The position numbers and the translations under genes are program-made. DNA of 64,000 nucleotides from Escherichia phage JEP8: the sequence record MT764208.1, one strand, 5' to 3'. The notes below the pieces were generated by a model. The model saw nothing but the letters and a program-made list of their open reading frames with translations. It was not told the origin of the DNA and did no database searches. Positions 51,126-51,869 of the stretch are shown piece after piece. Numbering within the stretch: the stretch's first letter is position 1; each line of letters starts with the position of its first letter.

Positions 51126-51869
51126 TCATTCTCCGTCAGTTCGTTTCAGGTATTCCAACGCTGCATATAGTCTTTGCGGATCGTCTTTGAACATTCCTAA
51201 TCCGGCGTTACATTTTCCACAAAGAACACCTCTTATCTTACCAGTCTTATGATTATGGTCAAGATGTTTCCACTTTTGGCGTTTTCTCTCGCCGCATCGT
51301 TCATTTATGAATTTTACACCGCATATCTCGCAATTGTCAACTCTGTCTAAAATTTCTAACGCTTCTCGTTTTGTTATTTTTATACCATCTTCGGCGTGGT
51401 GATATGGTCTATCTAGTTCTCGTTCTCGTTTCTCAAACAATCGACACTCATCAGAACAATACTTTTGAGATGCGTTTATTGCAACAAATGGTTTACCACA
51501 TTTAGCGCATTCTCGTTCAATCTTTATGTTTTGTGCCTGATCCAACGATGCGCAACGAGAACAGCAAAATTTATGATAGCCTCTAGAGTATGTATGATAA
51601 TTTACAGGATTTGGGCATCTTGCACATTTAACTATTCCTGTTATTCCGTGGCGCAATCTATAAACAGCCTCGTTATATGGTTGTTGATTTCTGAGACCTC
51701 CATTACAGAACTTAAACTCATTCCTTATAATCTGAAATTCCGCAGGATACAATTTTTCCATTTCTGGAATTTTATTTTCTTTAAAAAGATTTGAGTTTAG
51801 TCTATTTCCGCTTTTCGCCTCCAGAACATCAACAATAAACTTTTTGATGTTCACTTTTTCTCTCTCCAA
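51126..51869 (-). CDS. endonuclease VII-family (HNH-like) protein, likely free-standing homing endonuclease
   Basis: multiple C-x2-C zinc ribbons and C-terminal [26 protein letters not shown]. Confidence 0.6.
   Translation of the reverse strand: [247 protein letters not shown]

Follow-up and report, generated by a model that had tools for sequence, protein, structure and literature searches.

Why should a protein related to endonuclease VII be encoded immediately ahead of the gene for a topoisomerase subunit in a T4-like phage? The question is raised by an open reading frame (ORF) on the minus strand of Escherichia phage JEP8 (MT764208.1), within the 64,000-nucleotide (nt) stretch of DNA analysed here, which we call the window. 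The ORF (51126..51869, 247 amino acids (aa) if read from a TTG) is real, and 6 nt separate its end from the ATG of gene 39, the unsplit gene for the large subunit of topoisomerase II. An earlier note on this DNA, made from the letters alone, had taken the ORF for a likely mobile homing endonuclease. We reach the same answer and consider it very probable that the product of the ORF is a homing endonuclease of the Endo VII-motif family known as F-CphI/"DHHRN", encoded by a free-standing gene outside any intron. This reading is strongly supported, at the level of sequence comparison, by the presence of the gene in only 12 of 58 related records, by its clean insertion, by a linked divergent tract of gene 39, and by the recurrence of the same address in three further settings. 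The features on which the argument depends are these:

51126..51854, minus strand: endonuclease coding sequence, 242 aa, most likely with a GTG start; TGA stop at 51126-51128
51855..51869, minus strand: 15 nt added by a mechanical TTG start call, probably 5′ leader with GGAGAG
51630..51854, minus strand: N-terminal ∼75 residues, predicted helical by an AlphaFold2 (AF2) model, presumed part of the DNA-recognition region
51531..51629, minus strand: treble-clef zinc finger 1, C77, C80 … C97/C98, C101 (CxxC-x16-FCCSxC)
51417..51515, minus strand: treble-clef zinc finger 2, C116, C119 … C133, C137
51144..51383, minus strand: C-terminal Endonuclease_7 beta-beta-alpha-metal nuclease domain (PF02945, PDB profiles, Foldseek)
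51195..51266, minus strand: catalytic block, D199, H200, H202, R208, C212, C215, N216 (invariant alignment columns)
51120..51871, minus strand: 752-bp insertion that replaces the 13-nt leader found in empty-site phages, AAGAGGTTTAATA (junction alignments)
50439..51119, minus strand: divergent gene 39 5′ tract travelling with the endonuclease, sharp right edge at 50439 (24-26% divergence from empty-site Krischvirus)
51063..51116, minus strand: codons 2-19 of gene 39 (nt 4-57), which specify SEFLLLDDRAHCLKRPS just ahead of the MYIG motif; densest block of differences in that tract
49296..51119, minus strand: gene 39, 607 aa, presumed target

The family assignment is provided by the C-terminal part of the protein. 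A Pfam search, which the earlier note had proposed as a check, matched Endonuclease_7 (PF02945) with a score of 60.7 bits (E = 1.3e-16; the cut-off is 23.6), over residues 163-242 of the 247-aa reading or 158-237 of the 242-aa reading, and PHROG endonuclease VII families also matched the ORF. In an alignment of 12 sequences, the residues C175, C178, D199, H200, H202, R208, C212, C215 and N216 are invariant, and their counterparts in T4 endonuclease VII are C23, C26, D40, H41, H43, R54, C58, C61 and N62. The cysteines of the catalytic block are predicted to hold a structural zinc together with C175 and C178. With a score well above the cut-off and all catalytic and zinc residues conserved, the family membership first claimed from the letters is borne out, as is the presence of several C-x2-C pairs ahead of the catalytic block.

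Structural comparison points the same way. In the AF2 model, strands 197-200 and 207-211 and helix 213-217 make up the beta-beta-alpha unit, and a PDB profile search placed Hpy99I first (E = 3.8e-16) and T4 endonuclease VII after it (E = 1.6e-11). Hpy99I was also the best Foldseek match of the model (probability 0.99, E = 2e-3), with a low template-modelling score across the whole chain; Foldseek was informative for Hpy99I and for a local YacG match only, and the word-indexed search for homologues returned 11 proteins. At the other end of the protein, the model has helices at 3-15, 26-35, 37-47 and 58-68 with low to moderate pLDDT (predicted local distance difference test), and this N-terminal helical region is conserved in Gaprivervirus homologues of 40-45% identity.

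No HNH-family Pfam match was found in the ORF. One claim did not hold, namely that mob-type endonucleases belong to the Endonuclease_7 family. Mob enzymes are classical HNH proteins with an N-terminal nuclease (review PMC2988022); the T4 MobA remnant matches PF01844, and a mob-like ORF in phage phiS carries HNH_3 and AP2. The proper reference family is F-CphI/DHHRN (PMC6083498), and the JEP8 ORF carries every feature of that family that its residues and their order can show.

The distribution of the gene was then compared with that in relatives, as had also been suggested. The window belongs to Krischvirus, an RB49-like group of T4 relatives, and the closest record is phage E26, whose ORF is 99.6% identical. 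Among the 58 Krischvirus records that hold the locus, 12 carry the gene, in copies 97-99.6% identical to one another. The site is empty in 45: an RB49-type empty site is found in 44 records (97-100% identity over a 101-nt probe), and the other is in phage G37-3. The one remaining record, phiS, has an unrelated 179-aa HNH_3+AP2 endonuclease (gp052) at the identical junction. In empty-site phages ORF006.1 is followed by the 13-nt leader and then by gene 39. Junction alignments show that the insertion takes up the former gene 39 leader and ribosome-binding site (RBS) and rewrites the last codons of ORF006.1, and a replacement RBS is carried in the last codons of the endonuclease itself. Carriers and non-carriers are not separated by their flanks, and carriers belong to different species (E26 to gec3s, PHB13 to RB49); the distribution of the endonuclease does not follow the backbone phylogeny.

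The insertion does not stand alone, since it travels with a foreign-looking 5′ part of gene 39. In sliding windows against RB49, Phi1 and phiS, identity is 96-100% upstream of the insertion and 97-100% beyond the tract, and falls to 55-87% per 100-nt window over the first ∼680 bp of gene 39. Within gene 39 nt 1-680, carriers and G37-3 differ from RB49-type phages at 156-175 of 670 positions, whereas carriers and non-carriers are interleaved over the flanks, which take in 2.7 kb ahead of the insertion and the last 1.1 kb of gene 39 (E26 and phiS have 28 differences in the flanks, MIZ4 and RB49 have 36). The window and E26 show only 7 differences over 51957-50433, compared with 2.5-8% in the flanks. 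Two subtypes of the tract are ∼8% apart, one in the window and E26 and the other in all other carriers. When the phage collection was searched for a donor with blastn set for distant matches, only the 12 carriers and G37-3 had the tract; it is ∼78% identical to all other Krischvirus and at most ∼73% identical to other genera. The donor of the tract lies outside the sampled phage collection.

The same arrangement is found in other lineages. Full-length homologues with the same domain order, 40-45% identical across 98-99% of the protein, are present in Gaprivervirus phages VR7, VR26, RZ and TH15, and in the annotated genomes of VR7, VR26 and RZ they stand immediately upstream of gene 39. The distribution is sporadic here as well, with the gene absent from VR20, VR25, SP18 and ∼20 others. 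A 169-kb metagenomic phage contig (L017) has a 62% identical homologue 6 nt upstream of gene 39, and a short Krischvirus-like contig (L018) has a 77% identical one between an ORF006.1-like end and gene 39. Upstream neighbours differ: ORF006.1 comes before the gene in the window and L018, Gaprivervirus has gp39.1 or an ORF of 137 aa, and in L017 the gene follows 39.2 after a gap of 114 nt. Adjacency to gene 39 is constant in all four settings, i.e. the Krischvirus group, Gaprivervirus and the two metagenomic contigs. Some Gaprivervirus genomes have a further variable element here: past 39.1, and ahead of either gene 39 or the endonuclease, lies an ORF of ∼135 aa like RB69ORF005c (SP18 L020:1274-1672, RZ L007:2538-2951). 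The proteins at this Gaprivervirus site, SP18 gp006 and RZ gp034, were considered as candidates and rejected, as they are not nucleases and have only a weak FRD2 Pfam match.

Gene 39 itself is altered next to the Gaprivervirus copies. In VR26 and RZ its identity to endonuclease-less relatives is 56-81% for ∼1,100 nt and at least 92% past that point (∼85-87% in the last, partial 100-nt window). In VR7 compared with VR25 the change is far more compact: 19 differences are packed into nt 9-57 and none follows until nt 228, a clustering with a binomial P of ∼1e-13. Of the 11 changed codons, 8 are synonymous, including serine switches between AGC and TCG/TCT. These first ∼60 bp of gene 39 encode the conserved LxDxxHxxKRxGMYIG start of the GHKL ATPase. 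Because of the VR7 patch, we nominate the first ∼60 bp of gene 39 as the target, and we would give even odds that this is the recognition or cleavage region. The same comparison suggests that 51063..51116 of the window would be an immune version of the enzyme's target.

Other homing genes gather near the same place. The phiS gene noted above (PP449093.1, L005:2850-3389) lies between ORF006.1 and gene 39, and the 5′ region of phiS gene 39 is ∼11% divergent from RB49 compared with ∼2% further on. An endonuclease of another family at the same junction marks the site as a hotspot where unrelated homing genes insert. In G37-3 (MK327941.1, L004:4846-5340), an HNH_3 endonuclease-like ORF follows directly downstream of gene 39 and replaces the ORF that other Krischvirus phages have there. 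Moreover, in the Klebsiella T4-like phages Wolf_ER13, Nispero and KMI12, annotated HNH or GIY-YIG homing endonucleases stand beside the gene for the topoisomerase large subunit, and gene 39 thus appears to attract several homing families across genera. As a separate matter, the dda helicase gene (53050-54200) is a patchwork in which blocks of 86-94% identity alternate with blocks of 99-100% between the window and its closest relatives, independently of the endonuclease.

A homing cycle can be proposed from these data. In a mixed infection, the N-terminal fingers of the enzyme would recognise a genome with an empty site, and the enzyme would nick or cut gene 39 in about its first 60 bp. The break would be repaired by the phage recombination machinery with the endonuclease-carrying genome as template, and the repair would copy in the ORF and a variable length of adjacent gene 39 sequence. 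The altered gene 39 5′ end of the carrier would then protect it from self-cleavage. Expression of the endonuclease is probably low, given a polycistronic message, a GTG start and an overlap with the upstream stop, as for T4 mobA.

Four points weigh against this reading. First, the right edge at 50439 is identical in all Krischvirus carriers; variable right endpoints were sought among them as a sign of repeated homing and were not found, and a common edge argues for one founding import followed by spread and does not show many independent co-conversions. Second, G37-3 has the foreign tract without the endonuclease, with an RB49-type empty junction and the tract starting at ∼nt 9 (L004:3021-3700, against 51119-50439 of the window); this phage may have either a resistant allele left after loss of the endonuclease or a relic of the ancestral allele beside which the endonuclease first lived, and the sequence is ambiguous between the two. 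Third, a linked block could also be spread by ordinary homologous recombination, with no nuclease at work. Fourth, confidence in the structure model is no more than moderate (pLDDT 74.5, predicted template-modelling score 0.43, from the 12-sequence alignment).

The first and third of these points lend themselves to the alternative that survives best, although we regard it as unlikely: an active nuclease with an accessory role other than homing (e.g. degrading host or competitor DNA), spread by ordinary recombination, whose position at gene 39 is incidental or regulatory. Homologous recombination is rampant in T4-like phages, and the region is highly mosaic in their genomes regardless of this ORF. 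With a single right-hand edge in all carriers, repeated homing events are not directly visible. However, an incidental position would have to recur immediately ahead of gene 39 in three other settings despite differing upstream neighbours, with a foreign 5′ patch of gene 39 attached in each genus, and an unrelated HNH_3+AP2 endonuclease would have to arrive at the same junction in phiS. The pattern fits the target-linked homing genes described for T4 (PMC2988022), and we retain the homing endonuclease as the preferred explanation.

The earlier extent of 51126-51869 is corrected at its 5′ end: the true start is most likely the GTG at 51854, giving 242 aa, instead of the TTG at 51869. This choice follows from a Shine–Dalgarno sequence, GGAGAG (51862-51867), 7 nt upstream of the GTG, from the GTGA overlap with the ORF006.1 stop, from deposited annotations, and from the starts of homologues, since 51854 aligns with the start annotated in E26 and with the ATG or GTG starts in L017 and L018. 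Small indels were seen in the GAGAGAGAAAAA run just 5′ of this start (window 51855-51869 and its equivalents in L010, L012 and L013).

All 10 copies examined (8 from Krischvirus and the 2 metagenomic homologues of 62% and 77% identity) are intact at exactly 242 codons, and the ratio of nonsynonymous to synonymous substitution rates (dN/dS) among the Krischvirus copies is 0.05-0.13. From these two observations the gene is maintained by selection and is not a chance ORF. The same data speak against a decaying or inactive homing endonuclease remnant that persists by linkage to gene 39 alone, which we think quite improbable. Many phage homing endonuclease genes are defective, and T4 mobA is annotated as such. 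Deletions just upstream of the start would also suit a remnant: 2 bp in MIZ4 and MIZ5, which fuses ORF006.1 in frame to the endonuclease, and 1 bp in JK32 and Skers, which makes ORF006.1 longer. These indels lie outside the coding sequence, however, where they might modulate expression of the endonuclease, and every catalytic and zinc residue is conserved.

The zinc fingers and the constant neighbour invite a different explanation, in which the protein is a topoisomerase-associated factor whose YacG-like fingers contact the GyrB-like gp39, so that adjacency reflects a functional partnership. A Pfam YacG match at residues 80-110 (E = 0.029), a local Foldseek match to gyrase-bound YacG (4tma_K; 35 residues, root-mean-square deviation 2.8) and the invariant neighbourhood with gene 39 are consistent with it. 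Yet at 14.5 bits the YacG match stays under its cut-off of 25.5, and finger 1 matches both YacG and Zn_ribbon_recom weakly, below cut-off. An exhaustive HMMER search with the N-terminal 150 residues returned 585 proteins; the finger recurs in tandem in hundreds of metagenomic proteins, a single one having as many as 28 copies, and in some of them it is joined to DUF559 or MTES_1575 nuclease-like domains or to DUF7487. The occurrence of the finger in tandem arrays and with other domains indicates a generic, reusable treble-clef module, probably DNA-binding, and leaves the weak resemblance to YacG without specificity. Moreover, 46 of 58 relatives have the same topoisomerase and lack the gene, and such a factor would leave the foreign gene 39 tract unexplained. 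We therefore rejected a YacG-type topoisomerase inhibitor as the principal explanation, on its sub-cut-off score and the generic nature of the finger, and consider a topoisomerase-associated factor in general very improbable. As an observation on the module itself, the CxxC…[FY]C[CS]xxC finger forms long tandem arrays in large metagenomic proteins of unknown function, e.g. P0012 (1662 aa) and P0015 (1134 aa).

A hybrid of the two ideas can also be imagined. The mobile unit carries the RBS and first codons of gene 39, and clean loss of the endonuclease would for this reason disable an essential gene, a form of addiction. Such addiction, combined with YacG-like fingers contacting the GyrB-like gp39, would make the protein a topoisomerase-coupled nuclease that is not purely selfish; we rate this combination as quite improbable.

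T4 endonuclease VII itself (gp49) shares the catalytic motif and zinc site with the JEP8 protein. Its motif is N-terminal and followed by the dimerisation domain PF09124, and its gene is universal in the genus and maps elsewhere. RB49 and E26 have a separate 157-aa gene 49, ∼34 kb away, and E26 gp49 has Endonuclease_7 at residues 7-75 and then Endonuc-dimeris (PF09124). The JEP8 ORF did not match PF09124 even at E≤1, and tblastn with T4 gp49 returned only this ORF, with no second Endo VII motif in the 64-kb window. The view that the ORF is not gene 49 was accordingly right. A second Holliday-junction resolvase or packaging endonuclease, paralogous to gene 49, is hardly credible, since beyond the common Endonuclease_7 motif and the labels 'endonuclease VII' or 'recombination endonuclease' in several deposited genomes it faces a C-terminal motif without PF09124 where E26 gp49 has both domains in canonical order, a gene that is optional (12 of 58 records), a closer relation to Hpy99I than to T4 endonuclease VII, and a homologue, VR7 gp6, placed in the endonuclease clade and not in the resolvase clade (PMC6083498).

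The surroundings of the homing gene contain these further features:

51851-51961, minus strand: ORF006.1, a 36-codon hydrophobic ORF whose stop overlaps the endonuclease start (GTGA)
51958-52131: 39.2 zinc-ribbon ORF
51129..51134, minus strand: GGAGAA, the gene 39 ribosome-binding site inside the final endonuclease codons
51311..51340, minus strand: sigma-70-like promoter match TTGACA-18-TAAAAT (11/12, consensus scan), inside the endonuclease ORF, ∼190 nt upstream of gene 39

The location first given, between gene 39 and dexA, holds on one side only: the ORF adjoins gene 39, but ORF006.1 and the 39.2 zinc ribbon lie between it and dexA. The gene 39 RBS also lies inside the end of the endonuclease ORF in L017, L018, VR26, RZ and VR7, i.e. 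at every homologous locus examined. No group I intron or other Rfam RNA family was found within 48800-53300, and the endonuclease gene is thus free-standing. The promoter and terminator scans gave hints at the level of consensus and were not relied on; the match at 51311-51340 could, weakly, be an embedded gene 39 promoter. A second sigma-70-like match (11/12) lies at the ORF006.1 start (51921-51948, minus strand). A hairpin with a 14-bp stem (51889-51921, minus strand) inside ORF006.1, just 5′ of the endonuclease start, was flagged in the terminator scan; its T-run is weak, and it is also found in empty-site phages.

To our knowledge, F-CphI is the only Endo VII-motif homing endonuclease that has been characterised, and the coliphage branch, represented by VR7 gp6, has been predicted only. 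New in the present analysis are a Krischvirus member of this family, evidence from three or more phage lineages that links the family to the topoisomerase gene's 5′ end, and a mobile unit that includes the RBS and first codons of gene 39, with a concrete candidate target in roughly the first 60 bp of that gene. If confirmed, the system would offer an easily handled E. coli-phage model for Endo VII-motif homing endonucleases, and it would add to the cases in which parts of an essential replication gene are moved from phage to phage by homing genes. It leaves present views of homing as they are; this is a fairly ordinary mobile element of an already predicted kind.

Among known systems, the best solved-structure relative of the nuclease domain is Hpy99I (PDB 3fc3), and the likeness includes the C-terminal helix GLGxFKDxPxxLxxAIEYLK. 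Hpy99I is, however, a bacterial restriction enzyme paired with a methyltransferase, and its N-terminal domains are unrelated; no methyltransferase is adjacent to the JEP8 ORF, whose neighbours are ORF006.1, 39.2, dexA and gene 39.

T4 MobA resembles the JEP8 system in its genetics and differs from it in its protein. The mobA gene has a GTG start, overlaps the upstream ORF and forms a promoter-less polycistronic cassette, and MobA targets the gene for the topoisomerase large subunit (PMC2988022). Both genes are thus optional, promoter-less cassettes in a polycistronic early region with a GTG start, an overlap and a topoisomerase target, inferred in the case of JEP8. In T4, mobA lies downstream of gene 39 and splits 39 from 60, whereas the JEP8 ORF lies upstream of an unsplit gene 39. 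The match of the MobA remnant to the HNH family sets the Mob proteins apart from the JEP8 ORF, which is not of their family.

F-CphI (cyanophage S-PM2 ORF177) is the founding member of the DHHRN family; Fang et al. (2018, PMC6083498) showed it to be a homing endonuclease whose Endo VII motif lies at the C-terminus. The two proteins share this motif behind an N-terminal extension, with D, H, H, R, N and two CxxC pairs, and each is encoded by a free-standing gene beside a conserved gene that is its known or presumed target, in a T4-like myovirus with a separate resolvase. F-CphI is far shorter (Endo VII motif at residues 71-129) and is without the two treble-clef fingers. It targets psbA, where a group I intron gives protection ('collaborative homing'), and it has been tested biochemically. 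The JEP8 ORF has no intron; its target would be gene 39, and its protection would come from the sequence differences described above.

The closest comparison is with VR7 gp6, which was predicted to be a homing endonuclease and falls in the endonuclease clade (Fang et al. 2018, PMC6083498), and with its counterparts in VR26 and RZ. These are full-length homologues with the same domain order and the same position upstream of gene 39. They belong to another genus and subfamily, with gp39.1 or a 137-aa ORF as upstream neighbour instead of ORF006.1, and at 40-45% identity the exact recognition sequence has probably diverged. The patch of altered gene 39 sequence also differs in length, from ∼50 nt in VR7 to ∼1,100 nt in VR26 and RZ, with the ∼680 nt of the JEP8 tract between them.

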